Positions 1,943 through 18,831 are shown, counted from the stretch's first letter. The stretch is 24,297 bases of DNA from Clostridiales bacterium UBA1774 (GCA_002314635.1 DCGQ01000041.1:149-24445), one strand, 5' to 3'. The notes: a model not told the origin generated them from the letters alone. Made by a program: numbers and translations.

Positions 1943-3715
1943 TCAGGAATCGGCCCGGAAAAGTCCCATCCCGACTTTCTGCCACTCCTGACCATCCATA
2001 TGCACGTCCAGTCCGCGTTCCTGCAGCTGTTTCAGCATTTCCGGCAGGCTGACGCCTGCTTTCGCCGCGACGGCTCTGGCGTGACTGTCCGGCGGAGGCG
2101 GTGCCTCCCGCAGCTGATACAGGTAGCGGATTCCCTCCGCGCCTGTTTCCGCAGTCATGACCATACTTTTCAGCTGCCCGGAAATCCGTTTTTCCGCAAA
2201 CAGCTCCTGCAGCCGGGGCCAGATATGATTAAAATGCGTCACCAGAATGTTTGTCACTTGTTTTTCTGACAGGGATGCCAGCAGGTCGGCACAAATATCG
2301 CCGCCCTCTTTGGCGCTGGTGCTGGTCATAGGTTCATTCAGCAGCATCAGACTGTCAGCCGTCATCTGCTGCCGGAGAACACCCAGTCTCTGTACCTCCA
2401 GACCCATGCGGCTGTCCGCACCGGTCTCGCTTTCACCGGCAGCAAAGAGGGTCAGCAGTGCATCCCGGGGCGCAAAGGAGGCCTCCTGTGCCGGAAGAAG
2501 CAGCCCCAGCTGTGCCAGAAACAGCAGTTGTCCGCACAGGATGAGCCAGCAGGTCTTACCGGAGCTGTTTGGGCCTGTCACCAGAATGCTGCCGCCGGGC
2601 GCAAGGTCGATATCATTGGGAACCGGCAGCAGTCCGGTACAGGTCTGCTCCGGCAGATACGCTTTCTTTGCGGACAGCACCCGTTCCGCTCCCACTGCCG
2701 GGCTGCACAGAGGTGCGCCCTTTTCCCGCAGCTTTCGGGCGAAATCGGCGGCAGCGGTATAAAACAGCAGCGCATCCCGCAGGCTCAGAAGCGTCTCCGA
2801 AGCATCCACCGGCAGCTTCCAGACTGCTTCCCGCTGCTTTGTCAGCGTGGTACGCAGTTCATACCCCACCTCACTGAGCAGGTATTCCTGAAACAGCGTG
2901 GCGGACCCGTTCTGCGGGAAGGCAAAACCATTGGTGATGCCGCTGCGCTCTCCCTCTGCTCCCGCTCCGGCAAACATACCCGGGCGGGGATAGCTCTCCT
3001 CCCGCGTTTCCGCAACCTCCAGTCCCACAATGCCCATGTGCCCGTCCATGCACACATCAATGGCAAAGGACCCAAGGCCTTTCCAATCCCGGTCCAGTCC
3101 GTCCAGCACCGCAAGCATATGCTCCGCATTTCCGCTGCGGCAGTTTTCCTCCGCCCAGTCCCGCAGTGTCCGCAGAACCGGACTCTGCAGCGGCAGCTTC
3201 GCCATACCGTCCCGCAGCAGGCAGAGGGCCTCTGCGGTTCCCCGTGCCTGCCGTTTCCGGAACATGGTCAGACGCAGCAGCTGGGCATAGCGGTTATCCG
3301 AGGCATTTTCCTCCAGAATATCCGCACCCTGCTTGCTCAGATTTTTTTCCAGCTTCAATACGGCCTTTTTTACGCCATCCATCGCCGCATCCACTCTGGA
3401 GACCCGAAGGCCGCCCATATTGTCCTGCACACCCTTTACTGCCAGTTCCAGCTCCGCAAGCCGCTCTGTCAGCCTTTTCAGGGTCTCCGTCAGTTCTGCA
3501 TTGTCAAGCAGCTCCGCAATGGTCTGCTGTCTGATTGCAATCGTCTCCGGGTCCCGGGTCAGCATGGGATTCAGGAAGCTCAGTGCCTCCTCCCCGTTTC
3601 TGCCGGGCAGCAGGAGTGCGCCCAGCCGTTCCAGTTCCAGATCCTGTTGGGAAAGGGAGATATCCATTTCCCCGCTGTGATCCCCGTTTGGCCAGAGAAG
3701 TGTGGTTCCTGTCAT
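1943..3715 (-). CDS. MutS domain-V family ATPase (paralog A)
   Basis: Walker A ILVTGPNSSGKTC, Walker-B-like LMLLNEPMTST (again N in place of D), H-loop LVTHFNHIW. The N-terminal region shares the DL.(I/L)ERL pattern with paralog B. GGAG lies 7 nt before the ATG. A 32-bp gap to paralog B implies an operon. Confidence 0.75.
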   Translation of the reverse strand: MTGTTLLWPNGDHSGEMDISLSQQDLELERLGALLLPGRNGEEALSFLNPMLTRDPETIAIRQQTIAELLDNAELTETLKRLTERLAELELAVKGVQDNMGGLRVSRVDAAMDGVKKAVLKLEKNLSKQGADILEENASDNRYAQLLRLTMFRKRQARGTAEALCLLRDGMAKLPLQSPVLRTLRDWAEENCRSGNAEHMLAVLDGLDRDWKGLGSFAIDVCMDGHMGIVGLEVAETREESYPRPGMFAGAGAEGERSGITNGFAFPQNGSATLFQEYLLSEVGYELRTTLTKQREAVWKLPVDASETLLSLRDALLFYTAAADFARKLREKGAPLCSPAVGAERVLSAKKAYLPEQTCTGLLPVPNDIDLAPGGSILVTGPNSSGKTCWLILCGQLLFLAQLGLLLPAQEASFAPRDALLTLFAAGESETGADSRMGLEVQRLGVLRQQMTADSLMLLNEPMTSTSAKEGGDICADLLASLSEKQVTNILVTHFNHIWPRLQELFAEKRISGQLKSMVMTAETGAEGIRYLYQLREAPPPPDSHARAVAAKAGVSLPEMLKQLQERGLDVHMDGQEWQKVGMGLFRADS

Positions 3716-6720: not shown

Positions 6721-6758
6721 AGAGGCGTCGGTTCTTCGGAATCGACACCTCTTTTTTA
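6721..6758 (+). terminator. Rho-independent terminator after mop
   Basis: AGAGGCGTCG-gttcttcggaa-CGACACCTCT, a 10-bp stem with one mismatch, followed by TTTTTT. Confidence 0.6.
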
Positions 6759-6760
6759 GA

Positions 6761-6799
6761 AAAACCGCTGTATGCGTTTTCGGCGCACACAGCGGTTTT
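6761..6799 (-). terminator. Second hairpin (AAAACCGCTGT...ACAGCGGTTTT), terminator for the floA operon and a backup for mop
   Basis: Perfect 11-bp stem with a 17-nt loop. On the - strand the GC core is followed by UUUUUCU, and on the + strand by TTTTCTCATTTTAT. Confidence 0.5.
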
Positions 6800-6967
6800 C
6801 TCATTTTATCGGCCGTTCTTTTTTCCGCGCAGGGCCAGCGGTTTTCCCATAACCTCCGACCAGATCAGCGCAGAGCGAAGGGTTCCGGCGGTACGCCAGT
6901 CGGGTTTTTCGGTTTTCGCCTTCGCCGGACTAACAGGTGCTCCGGCCTGCTTTACCGGTGCCGCCAT

Positions 6968-7939
6968 TTACTTCTTCTCCTCTTCCGCAATGGCGTCACG
7001 CATATGGGTATCTGCAATCACATTCTGCATATTGTAGTAATCCAGCACGCCCAGATGTCCGTCCCGCAGGGCGGCAGCCATGGCCATGGGCACCTCGGCT
7101 TCGGCCTCCACCACCTTGGCCTTCATTTCCTGTGTCTTGGCCTTCATCTCCTGCTCGTTGGCGATGGCCATGGCGCGGCGTTCCTCTGCCTTGGCCTGTG
7201 CGATCTTCTTGTCGGCCTCAGCCTGATCGGCCTGCAGCTGTGCGCCGATGTTGCGGCCCACATCAATATCCGCGATGTCGATGGAGAGGATCTCAAAAGC
7301 AGTGCCTGCTTCCAGACCCTTGCTCAGCACGGTCCGGGAGATCAGGTCCGGGTTTTCCAGCACTTCCTTGTGGGTAGCTGCGGAGCCGATGGTGGTGACT
7401 ACGCCTTCGCCCACTCGGGCAATGACGGTCTGTTCACCGGCACCGCCGACCAGACGGTCGATATTGGCACGGACGGTGACCTTCGCCTTGGCCTTCAGTT
7501 CAATACCGTCCTTGGCGATGGCGGCAACCACGGGGGTCTCGATAACCTTGGGATTGACGCTCATCTGCACGGCCTCCAGCACGTCACGACCGGCAAGGTC
7601 GATGGCAGCGGCCCGTTCAAACTCCAGCGGGATATCGGCACGCTGAGCCGCGATCAAAGCATTGACCACCCGGTCCACATTGCCGCCGGCCAGATAGTGT
7701 GCTTCCAGCTTGTTGATGGACAGCTTGATGCCGCCCTTCACAGCCTTGATCATCGGATTGACGATCAGCGGCGGGGATACACGGCGAAGGCGCATTCCCA
7801 CCAGAGCAAACAAACCCACCCGCACATTGGAGGACAGAGCGCTGATCCACAGACCTACCGGAATGAACCGGAACAGCAGGATCAGGAAAAGGATAATGAC
7901 TACAACCAAAACAATCGGTATTGTGGCTAGTGCTGGCAT
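6968..7939 (-). CDS. floA: Flotillin-like protein FloA (SPFH/band-7, YqfA family)
   Basis: Near-colinear similarity to B. subtilis FloA (LWISALAAGV...LVGMRLRRV...[21 protein letters not shown]...[23 protein letters not shown]...[19 protein letters not shown]). I take the ATG at 7939 ([10 protein letters not shown]...) as the start, because AAAGGAG lies 8 nt upstream. The track's ATG at 7957 has no usable SD and overlaps the preceding gene. Confidence 0.9.
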
Positions 7940-7943
7940 AAAA

Positions 7944-8447
7944 TTAACTCCTTTCATCTATCGGGCATACCACGATGCGGCTGCCCTCAACTTCGATAAC
8001 GCGCACCGCTGCGCCTTTATCTACAAATTCACCGCGGGTGACTACATCCATCCGTTTCCCGCTGAAATCCGCAATACCGGCGGGACGCAGCACCGTGATC
8101 GTGCTGCCGGTTTTGTCCAGCAGATCGGTATTCTCCTCGCTGGACGAAAAGCCCTGTTCCTTGTCCGTATTCTCCCGCAGAACCAGAAACCGGGGCAGCT
8201 TGCCCTTGGAGATCATTCTGGCTCCCACGACCAGAAACAGGAGGACGATGACGGCGGCAATCAGAACCAGCAGCACTCCCTGCGCTGCCGTTCTGGCAGA
8301 CAGGAGAATGTCCAGTCCCAGCGCCACAATCCCGATAACGCCCATAATCCCGAAGCCGGGTGCAAGGATCTCCGCTGTCAGAAATCCCAGACCGACCACC
8401 AGCAGGATCAGCGACCAGATGGTAAATCCGCCGAAAAACACGGGCAT
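7944..8447 (-). CDS. NfeD-family membrane protein (short form, TM helices plus C-terminal OB-fold)
   Basis: Hydrophobic N-terminal half, then a C-terminal [47 protein letters not shown] beta-barrel typical of NfeD partners of flotillins. GAAGGAG lies 10 nt before the ATG. The stop is 4 nt from the floA start. Confidence 0.75.
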
Positions 8448-8451
8448 AATC

Positions 8452-8832
8452 TCACAGCTCCTTCTTTTTCAGAGTATCCGTTTCCTTAATTTTCACACCA
8501 CAGTGGCGGCATTTTTTCGCCGCCTGATACGGTGTCAGGCTGATCAGTCCGCCGCACTTGGGGCAGCGGTAGCTTCGGATGAAGCAGAATATGCTGACCA
8601 TAAGAATCACGCATCCGAAGGCCATCAGCGCCCGGGGCAGGCTGACGGTTCCGCCGATCAGCAGCTTCCAGTCTTTTTCCGCATAATACGGAGCGATCTT
8701 TGGCATGAGCGCTCCCACCAGCAGGAAGGTCAGACCCGCAGTCTGCATCCGAATCACGATACTGCGGAGCGCACGAACGGTATTCAGTTCCTGCTGGGGC
8801 ATATTTCTCATCTTCGGCGGCACCTTTTTCAT
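8452..8832 (-). CDS. Small membrane protein with C-terminal zinc ribbon (CPKCG...CRHCG), function unknown
   Basis: Start moved to the internal ATG (MKKVPPKM...), preceded by AAGGAG with a 7-nt spacer. The 8895 ATG has none. Two predicted TM helices. The stop is 4 nt before the NfeD start. Confidence 0.55.
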   Translation of the reverse strand: MKKVPPKMRNMPQQELNTVRALRSIVIRMQTAGLTFLLVGALMPKIAPYYAEKDWKLLIGGTVSLPRALMAFGCVILMVSIFCFIRSYRCPKCGGLISLTPYQAAKKCRHCGVKIKETDTLKKKEL

Positions 8833-8891
8833 GGCAATGCTCCTTACCTGTTTTTTTCTATTGTAATCGGGCTTTGCCTGATTTACCAGTG

Positions 8892-10283
8892 TCAAATGTC
8901 ACTTTCCTGCAAAGTTTCCGCAGGTGCGGGGTTCGCTTTGCTGCCTGCCCAGCCGGGCAGTTCCATACCTGCCATCTGGAACATTTCGTTCAGCGGCGGA
9001 ATGCTCTTCATCAGGCCGGAAATGTACCCGGCGGTGGCATTCTTTCCGTCCTTTCCTTCGCCGGAATCCCAGACCGTGACCTTGTCGATCTTCACATTCT
9101 TCACGGCCTCTACCTGAATCCGGATCAGATCTTCCATTTTATCCGTCAGCATCAGCTTTGCGGCGGCATTGGCGTCTCCGCCGGCAGCTTCTACGATGGC
9201 ACGCAGACCTTCGGCCTGCTTCATCAGGATTTCCTTCTGGCCTTCGGCTTCCGCGATCATTCTGGCGCGGATTGCGTCTGCTTCACCGGCAGCGCGGCGG
9301 CGAATCTGCTCTGCCTCGGCTTCCGCTTCCAGCTCTGCCTTCCGCTTCAGGATCTCAGTGGATACGATGACGTCTGCTTCCTGCGTGGCCTTTTCTCGGG
9401 CGGCACGAGCCGCTTCTGCCTGCTGCTCCGCCACATAGGCTTCTTCCATGGCCTTGGCCGCCTGAATCTTCTCAGCCGCGGTTGCAAGACGCAGAGCCTC
9501 GGCTTCCTTCTCACGGCGCTGGGCTTCGGACATGGCCACCTGCACCTTGGCAGCATTTTCGCCCTGAATAGCCAGAGCATTTGCTTCCGAAACCTGCACA
9601 CGCTGATCTCTGTCCGCATTGGCCACGCCGATGGAACCGTCTCTGTCCTTTTCGGCCACGGTCTTTTTCGCATCGTTGATGGCCTTGGCTGCTGCTTCCT
9701 TACCCAGAGCCTCAATGTACCCGCTTTCATCGCTGATATCCGTGACATTCACGTTGATCAGGCGCAGACCGATTTTTTTCAGCTCCGTCTCCACATTGCG
9801 GCTGACCGCATCCAGAAACTTATCGCGGTCCGCGTTGATCTCCTCAATGTCCATGGTGGCAATCACCAGACGAAGCTGACCGAAGATGATATCCTTCGCC
9901 AGTTCCTGAATCTGCGGCAGCTTCAGACCCAGCAGACGCTCGGCAGCATTCTGCATCACACCGTTTTCCGTGGAGATGCCCACGGTGAAGGTGCTGGGTA
10001 CATTAATTCGGATATTCTGGCGGCTCAGCGCGTTCTGCAGATCCACGGAAATGCTGATGGGGGTCAGATCCAGATACTCCGCAGCCTGCACCACCGGCCA
10101 CACAAAGGCCGCGCCGCCATGAATACATTTGCTGGAACGAACCGTACCGTCCCGGTTGCTGCCCACATTACCGTAGACCACCATGACCTTGTCCGAAGGG
10201 CACTTTTTGTACCGTTTCAGAACCGCGGCCATCAGGCCGAAGGCGGCTACCACGATCACAGCAATCAAAATGAGTGTTTCCAT
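8892..10283 (-). CDS. floT: FloT-like flotillin (SPFH/band-7 with a long Ala/Glu-rich coiled coil)
   Basis: N-terminal TM, then an SPFH domain (VYGNVG...ISVDLQNALSRQNIRINVPSTFTVGI...). An EA-repeat coiled coil and a C-terminal flotillin tail follow, as in B. subtilis FloT/YuaG. I prefer the start at the second ATG (METLIL...), with AGGAGG 6 nt upstream. Confidence 0.85.
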   Translation of the reverse strand: METLILIAVIVVAAFGLMAAVLKRYKKCPSDKVMVVYGNVGSNRDGTVRSSKCIHGGAAFVWPVVQAAEYLDLTPISISVDLQNALSRQNIRINVPSTFTVGISTENGVMQNAAERLLGLKLPQIQELAKDIIFGQLRLVIATMDIEEINADRDKFLDAVSRNVETELKKIGLRLINVNVTDISDESGYIEALGKEAAAKAINDAKKTVAEKDRDGSIGVANADRDQRVQVSEANALAIQGENAAKVQVAMSEAQRREKEAEALRLATAAEKIQAAKAMEEAYVAEQQAEAARAAREKATQEADVIVSTEILKRKAELEAEAEAEQIRRRAAGEADAIRARMIAEAEGQKEILMKQAEGLRAIVEAAGGDANAAAKLMLTDKMEDLIRIQVEAVKNVKIDKVTVWDSGEGKDGKNATAGYISGLMKSIPPLNEMFQMAGMELPGWAGSKANPAPAETLQESDI

Positions 10284-10285
10284 TT

Positions 10286-10975
10286 TCATCCTCCTCTTTC
10301 TGTCTTTTTCATGACAATCAGTTCACCCTCCCGGGAAACGCCGATCACGGTCACCGGTGTTCCGGTGGGAATGGGTTCTTCTCCATCGGTTACGGCATTG
10401 CACTCTGTCAGGCTGCCCTGAATGACCACATTGACCTTACCTCTGCCCTGCCGTTTTTCCGGGATTCGCAGGTAAGCTTCTCCGGTCAGTCCCACCGCAT
10501 TCAGCGGGTCAACGGTCCCGTCCGCCTGCAGCCGCAGGAACAGCCGCATGACCACCGCAGTACCCACCAGAGCGGCAGTACCCAGCAGCAGGCCGGTCAG
10601 AATTGCGGCAATCCACGGATGCCCTGCCCGGGACACTGCCAGCGCTGCCCAGCCGTATACGGCGAAAAAATTGATGATACCCCGCAGCGTAAACAGATGC
10701 AGCGACAGGCTGTCGCCTCCGTCTCCCCCGGTATGGACATCGTGATCCGGTACTCCATCTCCGTCCGCATCCGGAAAGTCGGGAATACCATCTCCATCCA
10801 GATCAGGGCCGTCCGGGATTCCGTCCCCGTCAGTATCCAGATCCCCATCTCCGTCATGGTCGCCCAGACCCAGCAGGCTCATGACAAGCTGAATCACCAT
10901 CAGCAGGGTTGCCGGTATCGCGATACATGCATAGATACGTTCCAGCGCTGTCAAGGACAGCCACCAGTGATTCAT
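10286..10975 (-). CDS. NfeD-like (YuaF-like) membrane protein with an inserted Asp-rich Ca-binding-type repeat tract
   Basis: TM helices, then a C-terminal OB-fold (GLTGEAYLRIPEKRQGRGKVNVVIQGSLTECNAVTDGEEPIPTGTPVTVIGVSREGELIVMK). A DTDGDGIPDGPDLDGDGIPDFPDADGDGVPD tract lies between them. The stop overlaps the floT start region. GAGGGGAGAGAGG lies upstream of the ATG. Confidence 0.7.
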   Translation of the reverse strand: MNHWWLSLTALERIYACIAIPATLLMVIQLVMSLLGLGDHDGDGDLDTDGDGIPDGPDLDGDGIPDFPDADGDGVPDHDVHTGGDGGDSLSLHLFTLRGIINFFAVYGWAALAVSRAGHPWIAAILTGLLLGTAALVGTAVVMRLFLRLQADGTVDPLNAVGLTGEAYLRIPEKRQGRGKVNVVIQGSLTECNAVTDGEEPIPTGTPVTVIGVSREGELIVMKKTERGG

Positions 10976-10993
10976 ATGCGCCTCTCTCCCCTC

Positions 10994-11542
10994 TTACGCT
11001 TCATCCAGTGCGCCGATCAGTTCCTCTGCCCGCTGCTTCTGTTCTGCGGCCCGATATGCAGTCACCATGATTTCCAGCACCTGCCCCAACCGCTGCCCCG
11101 CTCCGGGAAACGGCTCCGCATATTCCTCCAGACAATGCCGGATCTTCGCTGCCGTCTGCGCTTCCGGGGCAGAAATACAGTCGATGAGCCACATATACAG
11201 CCGGGTATCATCCACCGTATCATCGCTCTCATCATCCAGATGCCCGTTTACATAGCTGAGCAGACGGCAGATGCGCTCCAGCGACAGGACGCTCCGCAGC
11301 ATGTTAATGGTCAAAATCCGGCTCAGCTGCCGACGGCTGTACCGCTTGTTCTCCGGCGGCGGCAGATACCCCCTTGCTACCCAGTTCTGAATCACATGGC
11401 TCTCCAGACCCGAAATATTGGAAACCTGACTCAGCATCAGATTCCCCCCGGCGAAAAGCGCTCCAAGCAGCGTCTCCGCCGCCTGTGGATAACCTGCGTC
11501 ATACCCCAAAACGCTGCCGGGCAATACCTTCTGCAATCCCAT
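10994..11542 (-). CDS. DUF1836-family protein (predicted HTH DNA-binding), first gene of the flotillin cluster
   Basis: LSQVSNISGLESHVIQNWVARGYLPPPENKRYSRRQLSRILTINMLRSVLSLERI matches the conserved DUF1836 core as I recall it (IQNYVKRGLLPPP.KK.YS..QL..L..I..L). The start is uncertain (ATG 11542, GTG 11545, or an internal ATG). Confidence 0.6.
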   Translation of the reverse strand: MGLQKVLPGSVLGYDAGYPQAAETLLGALFAGGNLMLSQVSNISGLESHVIQNWVARGYLPPPENKRYSRRQLSRILTINMLRSVLSLERICRLLSYVNGHLDDESDDTVDDTRLYMWLIDCISAPEAQTAAKIRHCLEEYAEPFPGAGQRLGQVLEIMVTAYRAAEQKQRAEELIGALDEA

Positions 11543-11561
11543 CACCTTCTATCTCGTCCGA

Positions 11562-11600
11562 GATTATCACATAATCACGTGATTGTCAACACAAATCTTG
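11562..11600 (-). promoter_or_regulatory. Promoter with an embedded 12-bp perfect palindrome AATCACGTGATT (11573-11584) upstream of the DUF1836 gene
   Basis: Minus strand reads TTGACAATCACGTGATTATGTGATAATCT. A -35 TTGACA is followed 15-17 nt later by a -10-like TGTGATAAT/TAATCT. The palindrome sits in the spacer, with additional ATCAC/GTGAT half-sites on either side. Confidence 0.45.
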
Positions 11601-11619
11601 TGATTCTCATTAATTGGTA

Positions 11620-11649
11620 GAAGCGGAGCGCCCGCAGACGCTCCGCTTC
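11620..11649 (-). terminator. Strong GC hairpin (GAAGCGGAGCG-cccgcaga-CGCTCCGCTTC) after the AKR-ferredoxin gene, no clear U-tract
   Basis: Perfect 11-bp stem 6 nt past the stop at 11656. Flanks are not T-rich on either strand, so it may be a weak terminator or an RNA-stability element. Confidence 0.4.
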
Positions 11650-15472: not shown

Positions 15473-15514
15473 AAATCGCCCCTGTCCTTTCGGACAGAGG
15501 CGATTTCTTTATTC
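15473..15514 (+). terminator. Bidirectional terminator shared by cvpA (+) and the convergent glycosidase-like operon (-)
   Basis: AAATCGCCCCTGTCC-tttcg-GGACAGAGGCGATTT, a 15-bp stem with one mismatch, followed by CTTTATT. The stop of the - strand gene lies in the T-run. Confidence 0.55.
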
Positions 15515-17317
15515 CTCACCCTCCGGGATAACGGAGGTGATCAGGGTCAGGTTCGAGCAGGCATTCCAGCTGCTCCAGGGCCATCCGTCAGACGCGACGG
15601 GGCCGGGCGCGATGTATACCGGCTTGCCGGTGCCGGGATACACATCGGTTCTGGGCGGGAAGCCCAGGATGCAGCCCCGGTCCTGACTGCATTCGCAGAA
15701 GCGGCGGGCAATGTAGGCCGCTTCCTTCTTCTTTCCGGCCAGATTCAAACCGGCGCACATGAAGAGCTGTACCGGAGCAACAACGCGGCCATGGACAAAG
15801 GTGCTGGTGCCATAATCCGCATTGGTGCTGTGCAGGCTCTCGGAAGCAAGGCCGATCTCGGTAAGGAAGTTGCCCTCCTCAATAAGCTGTTCGGTGATGC
15901 GGTCAATGATATTCTGCGGCAGCTTTTTGCCCAGAATGATCGGCTGGTAGCTGGCAATTGACATGCTCTTCACCGGCTTGCCATTGTGCAGGGTGACGAA
16001 CTTGTCTCCGTCCCAATGCTCATCGATCAACGTTTTCAGCAGACGCTTGCTGCGGGCATCGTACTGCTCTGCCTCTGCCAGCTTGCCGCAGCCTCTGGCC
16101 AGACGGCCGGTTGCCTCCAGCAGATCCACCATAAAGGCCATCAGATCCGGGTTAACCGTGGGGAATCCATCGGCAAAAATGGTGGCATCGTCCCAGCCGG
16201 AATCATTGGGAGAATCGATCTGGGTCACATCGTCACCGCGGCCGGCAGAACGGTACTTCACCCAAAATTCCGCCCACTTGGCAAACTTGGGATACATTCT
16301 CTCGCACTCCTCCGGCGTGAGGAAGCTGTCGCCGCAGTGCTGGATCAGATAGTCCAGTGCAAAACCCTGAATCGGCGGCTGGATACCGGCATTGGCAGAG
16401 AGGAAACCCACATTGCCGGGAAGCTGACCGGTTTCTTCATTCTGGTATTCAAACATGGTGCAGATCTGACGCCAGCCTTCTTTCGGGTCGCCCATCATGG
16501 ACATGCCGTTGAAGCTCTGCTGCCAGGAGAAGCCTTCGCCCAGATATTCATAGTGCATCAGGATCATGGGGCTCTGGTAAATGCCGCCCGCACCCGGTTT
16601 GGTACGGCGTGCCCACACGGTATGAGTGGCATATTTGAACAGTCTCTCAAATCCGGCGGCAGGCTTCCGATAGTTCTTCTGGAAGCTCTGATATCGGTCA
16701 AAGCCATCCTTCCGCAGCTCGGCAGGATCGGGATAGCTTTCCGGCAGCGCGCCGATTTCGATCATATCCTCATGCAGCGCGAAATCCAGTTCTCCGTCCG
16801 CATCGGGCAGCAGCGTCACCTTGACTGCGGTGTACTCGCCCTTTTCGTTCTGACTGGTTTCCACCTTCACGCTGCCCTTCAGCGGCTTCAGGCGCAGCTT
16901 GCCATAGGTAGAGAAGCTCAGTTCGGTGGTTCCGTCCGGCAAGGTGCAGATGCCGTGGCAGGCGCCGTTGACTGCCGGTGCGCCGGGTTTGTAACGGGAG
17001 GCCTCCAGCATCAGGCTCAGGCCGCCGGTTCCCAGAATGCGGGCATATTCATAATAGGTGAAGATCAGTTCCAGCTGTCCCTTCATGCAGGTAAGCTTGA
17101 TGCTGCCCGGATCGCCGTGGTAGGCGTAGGGCATCTCCCGCTCACCCAGATAGGCGCGCAGGCTGAACAGGAAGGGGTTTGCGTCCATCCATGCGCCGGG
17201 CTTATAGGACGAGAGCTGCAGCAGATGCGTGTAGTAGTTTTCAATCAGGAAGAAGGCGCTTCCTTCCCGGGCATAGACCGCATGGGTCAGATCAAATCTT
17301 TCTCCGATTCCAAACAT
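15509..17317 (-). CDS. Putative (alpha/alpha)6-barrel glycoside hydrolase-like protein (GH63/GDE-like), family uncertain
   Basis: 602 aa. Composition and motifs (WDDATIFADGFPTVNPDLMAFMVDLLE, YEYLGEGFSWQQSFNGMSMMG) are reminiscent of six-hairpin glycosidases. The call rests on recall, not a search. AAAGGAG lies 9 nt before the ATG. Confidence 0.4.
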   Translation of the reverse strand: MFGIGERFDLTHAVYAREGSAFFLIENYYTHLLQLSSYKPGAWMDANPFLFSLRAYLGEREMPYAYHGDPGSIKLTCMKGQLELIFTYYEYARILGTGGLSLMLEASRYKPGAPAVNGACHGICTLPDGTTELSFSTYGKLRLKPLKGSVKVETSQNEKGEYTAVKVTLLPDADGELDFALHEDMIEIGALPESYPDPAELRKDGFDRYQSFQKNYRKPAAGFERLFKYATHTVWARRTKPGAGGIYQSPMILMHYEYLGEGFSWQQSFNGMSMMGDPKEGWRQICTMFEYQNEETGQLPGNVGFLSANAGIQPPIQGFALDYLIQHCGDSFLTPEECERMYPKFAKWAEFWVKYRSAGRGDDVTQIDSPNDSGWDDATIFADGFPTVNPDLMAFMVDLLEATGRLARGCGKLAEAEQYDARSKRLLKTLIDEHWDGDKFVTLHNGKPVKSMSIASYQPIILGKKLPQNIIDRITEQLIEEGNFLTEIGLASESLHSTNADYGTSTFVHGRVVAPVQLFMCAGLNLAGKKKEAAYIARRFCECSQDRGCILGFPPRTDVYPGTGKPVYIAPGPVASDGWPWSSWNACSNLTLITSVIPEGEE

Positions 17318-17322
17318 GGCTC

Positions 17323-18831
17323 TCAGCTCCTTTCTTCCAGCGCCAGCAGAAGGGCGCAGATTTCCGGATCGTAATTGGCGGCTGCAGGTGCGGACGCCGC
17401 TTCGATGCTCTGATCCAGCAGGGCGGCAGCACGTTTTTCACAGCCCAGCGCGGCAATATAGGCAGGAATGCCGGTAACTTCACCCTTGGGATTGATGCCA
17501 TCAGGCAGCTCGCTGCCCAGTGCAATGGTCATCAGCGCGTTTTCCGCAGGACAGGGTTTCTCTTCGCCGGTAACAGCATTGCGGATCAGGAAGGTGCCGC
17601 CCTTCCAGAGGCTCTTCAGGGTTTCCATCTGCTGAGCTGCTTTCTCTGTCCATGCTGCGGCTTCTTCCTTCTGTTCCAGCTTTGCGGCAATGGCGGCCAG
17701 TGCTTTGCAGTTCAGGTACATCCACGCGCACAGATCCGGGAAGACCTGCGGTGCGGCATCGGACGGGAGAGGCTGCTTCGCCCAACCACTTTCGCAGGCA
17801 TAGGCATAGAAGCACACACCGTTCACGCTGCGGTTCTGGAACCACCATTCGGTGGCCTTCTTCGCCAGCACATAGCACTGCTCCAGCTTTTCCAGCGGCA
17901 CCCGATCCAGTCCGTCAGCCTTTATGGCACGGGTCAGCGCCATACCCCACAGAGGAGGCGCGGCTTCAGGCAGAATGGCAGAATCCTTCGCCCATGCAGG
18001 AACCATGCCGCCGGGTGTCATCATCCCCAGCACACTGAGCAGACGATCCACCACACGCTCCGTCTTTTTGAAAGGCAGTGCGGCAAGGAGCTGACTGCGG
18101 CTCAGTGCCTTCACATCACACATTTTATTGGAGATGAGAAGCTCCTGTCCCCGCAGCTTCTGATATCCCAGCCAAAGTACATAGGCATACAGCTCGCTGC
18201 TGCCGAAGGTGCGTTCCTGATAAGCGGCAAAAGCGGTCTTTGCCTTCTCTGCAGCGGCCGCCACATTAGGAGCGATCTCCTGACGGGCATAGCTGCTGTC
18301 CGTATCCCAGAACACGGCCTCCAGAACACCGTCTTCCGGTGTCAGGGTGATCACAGGGTCAGTGGAATGCAGTGCAGTCAGATCCCACATGACCTGTAGA
18401 TCTGCCTTACCCTTACGCATTTCGATAATGTAGCGGGTAGCGCCCATATTCAGCACATAGCCGTTTTCAAACGTGGCGGCAGTTTCGCCATGCCCCAGAC
18501 GCACACGCATGGTCAGTCCCAGACCATCCGACTCCAGCAGCAGTGCGTTCCCGTCAATGGCCATGCGGAGCTGTTTTCCGCCGCAATGCAGGGTTGCCTG
18601 AGACGCATCGGCCTCCGCCGTGACCGGCAGCTGTTCCCCGTTCAGCGTGGGTGTCAGCTTCACCATACCGGCGCTGCGGCTCACCACACCGCCGAACATA
18701 CTGCTGCTCTCCGTAGCCAAAGCCAGAAACAGTCCCTTGTCATAACCCTTTCCCTGCGGGTCCCATTCTTCAAAGAGCAGGTGACGGCTCATGTTTTGGC
18801 CAAAAGGCAATTTTTTCAAATCGAGCTGCAT
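17323..18831 (-). CDS. Putative six-hairpin glycoside hydrolase-like protein, paralogous in function to the downstream gene
   Basis: 502 aa. AAAGGAG lies 7 nt before the ATG. Only 5 bp separate it from the next gene, so this is an operon. Motifs such as FYAYACESGWAKQP suggest the same fold class. Confidence 0.35.
   Translation of the reverse strand: MQLDLKKLPFGQNMSRHLLFEEWDPQGKGYDKGLFLALATESSSMFGGVVSRSAGMVKLTPTLNGEQLPVTAEADASQATLHCGGKQLRMAIDGNALLLESDGLGLTMRVRLGHGETAATFENGYVLNMGATRYIIEMRKGKADLQVMWDLTALHSTDPVITLTPEDGVLEAVFWDTDSSYARQEIAPNVAAAAEKAKTAFAAYQERTFGSSELYAYVLWLGYQKLRGQELLISNKMCDVKALSRSQLLAALPFKKTERVVDRLLSVLGMMTPGGMVPAWAKDSAILPEAAPPLWGMALTRAIKADGLDRVPLEKLEQCYVLAKKATEWWFQNRSVNGVCFYAYACESGWAKQPLPSDAAPQVFPDLCAWMYLNCKALAAIAAKLEQKEEAAAWTEKAAQQMETLKSLWKGGTFLIRNAVTGEEKPCPAENALMTIALGSELPDGINPKGEVTGIPAYIAALGCEKRAAALLDQSIEAASAPAAANYDPEICALLLALEERS

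Follow-up and report, generated by a model that had tools for sequence, protein, structure and literature searches.

INTRODUCTION

The SPFH-NfeD operons and the scaffold proteins FloT and FloA are already well known. In Bacillus subtilis the flotillin operons lie at two distant loci, one of which, yqeZ-yqfA-yqfB, is sigma-W dependent. The yuaFGI operon is likewise sigma-W dependent, and in both operons (yuaF-floT-yuaI and yqeZ-floA-yqfB) a scaffold gene is preceded by the gene of an NfeD-type partner (PMC2636767). In Staphylococcus aureus, where FloA is the single flotillin, FloA and NfeD confine and stabilize unfolded proteins in membrane microdomains under stress (PMC11222466). Control of flotillin/SPFH scaffold levels is known mainly for Bacillus, via sigma-W, and we found no dedicated transcription factor for SPFH scaffolds in the literature searched. 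Here we analyze a 24,297-nucleotide (nt) stretch of DNA from Clostridiales bacterium UBA1774 (GCA_002314635.1 DCGQ01000041.1:149-24445), referred to as the window, in which a cluster of seven genes (g1-g7) joins a flotillin module to a FloA module behind a gene for a DUF1836 protein with a MerR-type fold.

As in B. subtilis, each of the two scaffold types in the window is preceded by an NfeD-type partner, and a third small gene follows floA. Unlike B. subtilis, the two modules are contiguous, are headed by the DUF1836/MerR gene and lack a sigma-W-type promoter; the partner of FloA is a short NfeD without the protease domain, yuaI is absent and an orphan zinc-ribbon gene is inserted. The NfeD-FloA pair is shared with S. 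aureus, whose system suggests by analogy a plausible physiological role for g5 and g6; the window adds to it a FloT-like system and a dedicated putative regulator.

Other DUF1836 proteins are known as predicted helix-turn-helix (HTH) neighbors of hemolysin III/DegV genes in lactic acid bacteria, where an earlier neighborhood analysis proposed an HTH regulator of membrane-related genes; the target genes there are other ones, and no link to SPFH proteins or flotillins was reported (PMC3146951). The remaining DUF1836 literature that we found consists of gene-table entries only. In the literature searched, no paper links a DUF1836 or MerR-type regulator to flotillin, FloA or HflKC operons, and none characterizes DUF1836 in a flotillin context, in agreement with an earlier reading of this DNA made from the sequence alone (the sequence-only reading), to which the role of the DUF1836 protein appeared uncharacterized. 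YkrK of B. subtilis may be another DUF1836 member; it would then be the sole characterized one, active in the same field of physiology. In two reports that give no domain information, YkrK is presented as the repressor of htpX and as a novel type of regulator (Lin et al. 2012, J Bacteriol 194:6758, as cited in PMC8767453 and PMC11790237); its target is htpX and not an SPFH operon.

On the evidence given below, we consider it reasonably probable that the window carries a single autoregulated operon of seven genes (~11560 to 6755), with g1 as autorepressor and with the FloA module relocated behind the flotillin module.

RESULTS

A seven-gene cluster headed by a DUF1836 gene

The seven genes are co-oriented on the minus strand from 11542 down to 6806, six of them (g1-g6) within 6968-11542 (Table 1). 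As read from the sequence, the gaps measure 18 nt between g1 and g2, 59 nt between g3 and g4, and 4 nt at both the g4-g5 and the g5-g6 boundary. The g2 and g3 genes overlap or abut (ATGA), and Shine-Dalgarno sequences of the GGAGG type stand ahead of the gene starts. Public gene calls on an essentially identical 24.5-kb contig of JGI metagenome 3300020112 match the coordinates of g1-g6 and add g7. The sequence-only reading had described six genes on one strand, with 59-nt and 4-nt gaps, as a flotillin-type and a FloA-type module side by side in one co-oriented cluster. All six open reading frames (ORFs) lie where it placed them, with the gaps it gave, and the domain calls bear out the pairing of modules; its count of six overlooked the conserved seventh gene, g7.

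The product of g1, to which the public called protein P0001 is identical, belongs to DUF1836 (Pfam PF08876, 53.3 bits; gathering cut-off 27) and has an N-terminal MerR-type winged HTH (MerR_1, 33 bits in Pfam). Its structure model (predicted local distance difference test score, pLDDT, 91.6) shows a confident winged-HTH MerR fold, and the MerR-fold regulators TnrA and GlnR are among its top structural matches. The C-terminal helical DUF1836 domain carries an invariant acidic NGxLDDESDD loop, and a long helix spans residues 148-181 at the C-terminus of the monomer model. Based on the co-occurrence described below, g1 is a putative DNA-binding autoregulator of the cluster.

Relatives of g1 stand directly upstream of SPFH operons

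With an alignment of g1 homologues as query, a scan that covered each GTDB species by one genome found relatives in 260 genomes. The best 80 of these 260 regulator loci were examined, and the window's seven proteins, together with two HflK/HflC pairs, were mapped onto them. All of the best 80 are from Oscillospiraceae-type Clostridia: Pseudoflavonifractor, Flavonifractor, Lawsonibacter, Faecousia and many rumen and gut metagenome-assembled genomes (MAGs). An SPFH operon lies directly downstream of the DUF1836 gene in 78 of the 80 loci, with a g2-like NfeD gene and a flotillin gene immediately after the regulator in 56 and an HflK-HflC pair in 22. The other two contigs end within 700 nt, and no locus of the 80 that has enough sequence is without an SPFH operon after the regulator. 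In two loci of the HflK-HflC type (L019 and L035; L numbers denote individual loci), HflK scores 232-237 bits against TIGR01933 (cut-off 159) and HflC 168-181 bits against TIGR01932 (cut-off 134); by their NCBIfam names, both are modulators of FtsH protease activity. We also considered DegV as a consistent neighbor of the regulator and rejected it, its gene being directly upstream in two loci only (L045 and L047).

The fused order of the window is much rarer. NfeD-FloA follows the flotillin gene in 5 of the 47 flotillin-type loci with enough sequence; these five species-level loci (L011, L012 and L014-L016) are all among the closest relatives, and metagenome contigs L004-L006 have the same order. 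L010, at 64% regulator identity, and all more distant species have only the trio of DUF1836 gene, YuaF-like NfeD gene and flotillin gene. The trio is thus the conserved and widespread unit, and the FloA half would be a late, lineage-specific addition. Cultured carriers of the trio include Flavonifractor plautii ATCC 29863, Pseudoflavonifractor capillosus ATCC 29799 and Lawsonibacter hominis; the organisms of the fused clade are uncultured MAGs.

The search was also anchored on FloA. Scanning metagenomes for FloA yielded 80 loci (73-88% identity), of which 65 have at least 700 nt of upstream sequence. NfeD precedes FloA in nearly all 80, and in none of the 65 is there a flotillin gene, a g2-like or g4-like gene or a gene of the DUF1836 subfamily upstream or nearby. 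The fusion had been proposed as unusual, a view that would have failed had it turned out to be the common ancestral arrangement in Clostridia. With 5 of 47 regulator-anchored flotillin-type loci and 0 of 65 FloA-anchored loci, it is not common among relatives and therefore not the common ancestral order. The sequence-only reading had asked how often the DUF1836 and the zinc-ribbon gene co-occur with the scaffold genes: the former accompanies NfeD-flotillin in 56 of 80 loci, and the latter is found in 0 of 65 FloA loci. The fused cluster is a rare, lineage-specific variant of known operons and a modest change of gene order.

A candidate palindromic operator lies within the regulator promoter

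A single conserved block was present within the 160 nt preceding the regulator gene at every locus examined. Alignment of 83 distinct promoters on the -35 hexamer gave aaAaaATc..a..A...ctaTTGACAaTCA..TGAc.gTgTG.TAtaaT, with a common architecture of TTGACA, 17 nt and TGnTATAAT and a conserved AATCA-NN-TGAyy palindrome in the spacer. In a set of 79 distinct promoters the common pattern reads TTGACA-aTCA..TGAy.gTgTG.TAtaaT. The palindrome arms hold 1.35-1.58 bits (TCA) and 1.06-1.63 bits (TGA), on par with the -35 and -10 hexamers. Only 0.2-0.3 bits are found at the two central bases and 0.06-0.4 bits farther upstream. Conserved arms with a variable center and flank point to a dyad-symmetric protein-binding site, as opposed to general promoter conservation.

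Besides the perfect palindrome in the promoter of g1 (Table 1), no sequence in the 24-kb window matches the operator exactly, and exact and near-exact matches are clustered nowhere else in it. The near-exact match is a second box just upstream of the -35 hexamer, whose position is conserved as AAAATC-N4-(G/A)A across the 83 promoters. We found no match to a sigma-W-type promoter (TGAAAC-N16-CGTA) anywhere in the window. A generic promoter and terminator scan overlooked both the g1 promoter, because its -10 matches at three of six positions only, and the terminator after g7; these were found by reading, locus comparison and folding. One locus of the set, L045 in a complete Oscillospiraceae genome (CP176394.1), has two tandem promoter-operators (8746-8774 and 8942-8970), ~200 nt apart, upstream of the regulator. 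A DegV-like gene lies just upstream in the same locus, recalling the DegV/DUF1836 neighborhood of lactic acid bacteria.

Binding of g1 to the palindrome is deduced from co-occurrence, and one could suppose that another factor binds there, or that the palindrome is an element of promoter context, with the DUF1836 protein in some other role (for example, a scaffold function that does not involve DNA) and kept in place by syntenic hitch-hiking. The left arm does overlap the -35 hexamer, which inflates its conservation. However, the right arm TGA (positions 12-14) overlaps neither hexamer and yet holds 1.1-1.6 bits, compared with 0.2-0.3 bits at positions 10-11. The motif also goes with the regulator gene whether a flotillin or an HflKC operon lies downstream, and the winged-HTH MerR fold of g1 is confident. 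We therefore regard this explanation as highly improbable.

The sign of regulation is a separate matter. The MerR_1 match and MerR-family fold of g1, and an operator placed, like that of classical MerR-type promoters, in the spacer between the two hexamers, would suit an activator that sits constitutively on the spacer palindrome and remodels the promoter on a signal. Classical MerR activation involves an over-long spacer of 19-20 bp that is untwisted by the activator, whereas the spacer is 17 nt in the window and throughout the consensus of 79-83 promoters. Moreover, with a near-perfect -35 and -10 in the consensus and an extended TG, the promoter should need no help to be strong, and the second box upstream of -35 resembles repressor-type tandem operators. 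Activation by g1 thus appears unlikely to us. Since the spacer is already of optimal length, binding of g1 should occlude RNA polymerase, which makes g1 a probable autorepressor.

The same promoter-operator occurs at unlinked FloA operons

A 29-nt position weight matrix was trained on 79 regulator promoters (training scores 21.6-47.6 bits, median 40) and run over 788 kb of FloA-anchored loci on both strands (1.6 Mb). Only three matches reached at least 18 bits, and all three scored 36-38 bits. Each is found on the coding strand of an unlinked NfeD-FloA operon (L119, L152 and L155), 55-100 nt before the start of NfeD. By chance, a motif this rich in information would not be expected in 1.6 Mb of sequence. 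The sites have the form TTGACA-GTCAnnTGAC-TGTGTTAAC, and an upstream TTA(A/T)GTTC(T/C)TG block is common to them and to one of the two promoter copies of L045. The presence of the regulator-type promoter-operator at unlinked FloA operons implies a regulon in some organisms. Neither a pattern search nor the matrix found a second operator site in the window or in the fused loci.

Other genes also precede NfeD-FloA. In L147 (1180-3663), which belongs to a more distant lineage, a DUF1836 ORF (65 bits in Pfam, 35% identity to g1) lies directly upstream of NfeD, FloA and a g7-like gene; it has no canonical in-frame start codon after the upstream stop and could be a pseudogene, a sequencing error or a case of unusual start. 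As this is the one copy among 80 FloA loci, the idea that a DUF1836 gene generally precedes NfeD-FloA was rejected. In many FloA loci (L091, L092, L095-L097, L104, L108, L110, L120 and L137), a gene for a membrane histidine kinase of ~290 aa is directly upstream of NfeD-FloA, the kinase of L092 scoring 70 bits for SPOB_a and 61 bits for HATPase_c. Through this adjacency, FloA may be coupled to signalling in another manner. In human-gut contigs, a recurrent protein without a Pfam family precedes NfeD-FloA (L119, L127-L131, L144, L152, L155, L156, L158, L163 and L165); its features are an acidic stretch, a hydrophobic segment and, at the C-terminus, the conserved motif FGFA[RE]WFNxHxFxLY.

Proteins of the two modules

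The first module encodes a YuaF-like protein and a flotillin. Against Pfam NfeD (PF01957), g2 scores 16.1 bits, below the cut-off of 29.1, and comparison with the NfeD family of g5 by hhalign gave no profile similarity (0.7% probability). A search of PDB sequences with a profile of the g2 family was discarded, as it returned spurious beta-propeller ('Bagel') repeat matches only. In the AlphaFold2 model, built with 23 homologues, three membrane helices and a disordered acidic loop precede a C-terminal OB-like beta domain (pLDDT 87-96). Membrane helices followed by a C-terminal five-stranded OB-like domain, in a gene directly upstream of a flotillin gene, are the marks of the YuaF type. Hinderhofer et al. 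(2009, PMC2636767) noted only a weak resemblance of YuaF proteins to NfeD, in keeping with the low sequence scores of g2. As the sequence tests fail, it is by predicted fold alone that g2 is NfeD/YuaF-like. The sequence-only reading had called g2 an NfeD with a repeat tract, and in this the fold and the tract are upheld and a Pfam NfeD match is not. The tract, at residues ~39-93 (10700-10870, minus strand), consists of three copies of an acidic D-x-D-G-D-G-[IV]-P-D repeat that resembles thrombospondin-type-3 and calcium-binding DxDxDG motifs. Tandem Repeats Finder detected no DNA tandem repeat beneath it, so the repeat exists at the protein level. Its copy number and length differ widely among g2 homologues, some of which have His/Asp-rich tracts instead.

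The g3 protein has an N-terminal membrane anchor, a Band_7 domain (96 bits in Pfam) and an Ala/Glu-rich coiled-coil region. Its best solved relatives are human flotillin-1 and -2 (E 1e-23, residues 53-432), and a match over almost the full length indicates a true flotillin. Against the FloT equivalog NCBIfam NF058507 it reaches 157 bits (cut-off 700), over the first ~280 positions only. Of the earlier label FloT-like, family membership thus survives and equivalence to FloT does not, and from these scores g3 is best called a flotillin-family or FloT-like protein and not a FloT orthologue. An exact-sequence look-up of the 465-aa form of g3 returned no record.

In the second module, g6 is unambiguously FloA (Pfam PF12127, 547 bits; NCBIfam NF010186, 556 bits, cut-off 393). 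The NfeD gene g5 is immediately upstream in the same orientation, 4 nt away, as in FloA (SPFH5) operons. Although g5 scores 43.6 bits for Pfam NfeD and 31.2 bits for NfeD_membrane, it is not of the long form (YqeZ/PH1510), having membrane and OB domains only and no ClpP-like protease domain. The small protein g7 has no Pfam family match. Its N-terminus varies in length, and its C-terminus has the conserved motif R-[ST]-A-[VL]-[VI]-W-[SAT]-E-[IV]-[LM]-G-K-P-x-A-L-R, which reads RSALIWSEVMGKPLALR in the window. The motif is found after floA in L004, L011, L012 and L016 and also in the distant FloA loci L090, L109, L114 and L147, the protein of L147 being 157 aa long with an N-terminal hydrophobic segment. 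Judged from the shared position after floA, g7 may be the counterpart of B. subtilis yqfB.

Between the modules lies g4, whose product combines two hydrophobic segments with a CPxCG...CRxCG zinc ribbon at the C-terminus; the Cys pairs and the hydrophobic core are invariant across its homologues. Neither g2 nor g4 has a family above threshold in Pfam or NCBIfam. Homologues of g4 are few: 4 clusters in a word-indexed search of 5.8 billion proteins, and 5 matches at E<=1e-10 in an exhaustive profile search of 1.84 billion representatives. The gene is present in fused loci L011 and L012 and absent from fused loci L014-L016, and the only FloA-anchored locus that has it is the short contig L090. As a general FloA partner g4 was rejected, given its presence in 0 of the 65 FloA loci and its orphan status in the exhaustive searches. 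The zinc-ribbon membrane protein proposed for the cluster is therefore real, and its part in a general raft module is not: g4 is a clade-restricted orphan.

Boundaries of the cluster and the junction between the modules

The cluster is bounded on both sides by hairpins (Table 1). The one downstream of g7 is an intrinsic terminator, and none of 200 shuffled sequences folds as well. The one upstream has no clear U-tract in the window and probably insulates the cluster from upstream transcription. At the g3-g4 junction we found no significant structure (minimum free energy -13.4 kcal/mol, z -1.9) and no U-tract, and consensus scans gave no terminator, promoter or operator match there. The earlier statement that no terminator is visible between floT and the downstream genes thus held up. 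Relatives differ in this respect: trio-only species have a full terminator, hairpin plus T-run, after the flotillin gene, and fused relatives L004, L011, L012 and L014 have a strong GC hairpin without a U-tract directly after the flotillin stop. In the fused relatives, these hairpins could be what remains of the ancestral terminator, or could act as attenuators or stabilizers that set the FloT:FloA expression ratio.

The cluster could also consist of two adjacent, independent units, with g1-g3 as the ancestral operon and g4-g7 transcribed from an unrecognized promoter of their own in the junction or within the last part of g3; the shared orientation would in that case stem from a rearrangement that left regulation uncoupled. 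In favor of such units, NfeD-FloA forms an operon by itself in almost all other places, a strong hairpin persists in fused relatives immediately behind the flotillin gene, the g3 stop codon is overlapped by a TTGACA hexamer, and the consensus promoter scan is insensitive. Yet that hexamer is ~24 nt, as read by eye, from the nearest TACAAT, the hairpins of the relatives are without U-tracts, and the window's junction has neither a significant hairpin (z -1.9) nor a U-tract nor a consensus promoter match. The operator-bearing promoter of the unlinked NfeD-FloA operons is absent here, as expected if expression depends on readthrough, and the fused order is conserved across at least five species-level relatives. 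Two independent units therefore seem to us an improbable arrangement, and we favor a single seven-gene operon.

Table 1. Coordinates of the cluster's genes and signals in the window, and of related signals in other loci
Feature	Position	Strand	Description
Upstream hairpin	11621-11649	(-)	13-bp stem, -27.4 kcal/mol, z -4.4; just after the aldo/keto-reductase stop
Upstream box	11594-11605	(-)	AATCACAAGATT (AATC-N4-GATT); center 21 bp upstream of main palindrome; one mismatch to operator pattern
Cluster promoter	11561-11589	(-)	-35 TTGACA 11584-11589; 17-nt spacer; extended -10 TGA-TAATCT 11561-11569
Main palindrome	11573-11584	(-)	AATCACGTGATT; perfect 12-bp palindrome in spacer, overlaps last -35 base
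g1	10994-11542	(-)	182 aa; DUF1836/MerR-fold, putative autoregulator
g2	10286-10975	(-)	229 aa; YuaF-type NfeD membrane protein (by predicted fold)
g3	8892-10283 (or 10289)	(-)	463 aa; flotillin-family SPFH protein, FloT/YuaG type (SPFH2)
g3-g4 junction	8833-8891	(-)	59 nt between the two modules
g4	8452-8832	(-)	126 aa; orphan zinc-ribbon membrane protein
g5	7944-8447	(-)	167 aa; short NfeD, FloA partner
g6	6968-7939 (or 7957)	(-)	323 aa; FloA (SPFH5, YqfA type)
g7	6806-6967	(-)	53 aa; conserved small protein, abuts floA stop (TAAATG)
Intrinsic terminator	6755-6800	(-)	17-bp hairpin followed by UUUUUCU; -28 kcal/mol, z -7.0
Promoter-operators in trans	L119 7043-7071; L152 6081-6109; L155 2121-2149		Human-gut metagenome contigs; e.g. 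ctATTGACAGTCACGTGACCATGTGTTAACAT
Post-flotillin hairpins in fused relatives	L004 10963-11040; L011 11981-12060; L012 3392-3450; L014 11706-11750		

Elsewhere in the window, MutS_V is the sole Pfam match (precomputed on the source contig) of two adjacent minus-strand genes at 414-1910 (498 aa) and 1943-3715 (590 aa), a pair that also adjoins the cluster in relative L004. A tandem of MGH1-like glycoside hydrolase genes on the minus strand (15509-17317, 602 aa; 17323-18831, 502 aa) lies beside an amino-acid ABC transporter. In L004 this glycoside hydrolase/ABC transporter block directly flanks the regulator gene, indicating that the neighborhood is syntenic but rearranged.

DISCUSSION

The order of genes, the promoter and the relatives are most simply accommodated by a model in which the cluster would be transcribed as one operon from a single near-consensus sigma-A-type promoter. 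The transcript would carry a first module of YuaF-like NfeD and flotillin, then g4, and a second module of short NfeD, FloA and the small protein at the YqfB position. The g1 protein would bind as a dimer to the AATCA-NN-TGATT palindrome in the spacer and probably also to the AATC-N4-GATT box two helical turns upstream, acting as an autorepressor that is released under a membrane or proteostasis signal. In several cases SPFH systems are tied to membrane protein quality control, which makes membrane or proteostasis stress the obvious guess for that signal. More broadly, the g1 subfamily would be dedicated to SPFH operons in Oscillospiraceae-type Clostridia, with control in cis of a flotillin or HflKC operon and, via a common operator, control in trans of an unlinked NfeD-FloA operon in some species.

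GlnR autoregulates the glnRA operon from two adjacent operators. By analogy with GlnR and glutamine synthetase, or with PspF and PspA, the co-encoded scaffold proteins, for example NfeD or the flotillin, might feed back on their regulator. Beyond the MerR fold, GlnR and TnrA of Bacillus have no detectable sequence family relationship with g1, and their operator sequence is different; control of g1 by an operon partner is likewise put forward as an analogy.

In trio-only species the hairpin after the flotillin gene is a full terminator, in fused relatives it has lost the U-tract and in the window no hairpin is left. Together with the missing FloA promoter-operator, this gradient suggests a simplest history, the direction of whose steps we infer from the sequence comparison. 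Two operons under one common regulator would have come first; NfeD-FloA-g7 would then have relocated behind the flotillin gene, after which the FloA promoter would have been lost and the flotillin terminator would have decayed. The g4 gene would have been gained or lost at the junction.

Several observations weigh against a single autoregulated operon and the wider role of its regulator. Co-transcription across the 59-nt junction would have as its basis only the absence of recognizable signals, and consensus scans miss many real promoters, including that of g1. MerR-family proteins classically activate from spacer operators, which makes the sign of regulation uncertain. In addition, the regulator gene is unseen on the three contigs with operators in trans, and the sample of regulator loci is biased to close relatives.

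The association of regulator, operator and SPFH operon is undescribed as far as we searched, and it is a more valuable lead than the fusion. A bolder and decidedly more tentative extension is that this DUF1836/MerR-fold subfamily might be a dedicated master regulator of flotillin, FloA and HflK/C in gut and rumen Clostridia of the Oscillospiraceae type, acting via the spacer AATCA-NN-TGAyy operator, with its activity set by the state of the membrane or scaffold. The fused operon might then be a regulon collapsed to one transcript. Taken with YkrK-htpX and the hemolysin III/DegV neighbors, DUF1836 proteins might prove to be Firmicute-wide regulators of membrane homeostasis.

The window and its relatives offer a candidate regulator and a precise 12-bp candidate operator. 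They also amount to a natural experiment, with one regulator connected in cis or in trans to operons for flotillin, HflKC or FloA, and since cultured relatives carry the trio, the hypothesis is directly testable. If true, it would give DUF1836 a function and would point to the signal that controls membrane microdomain capacity in abundant gut anaerobes.

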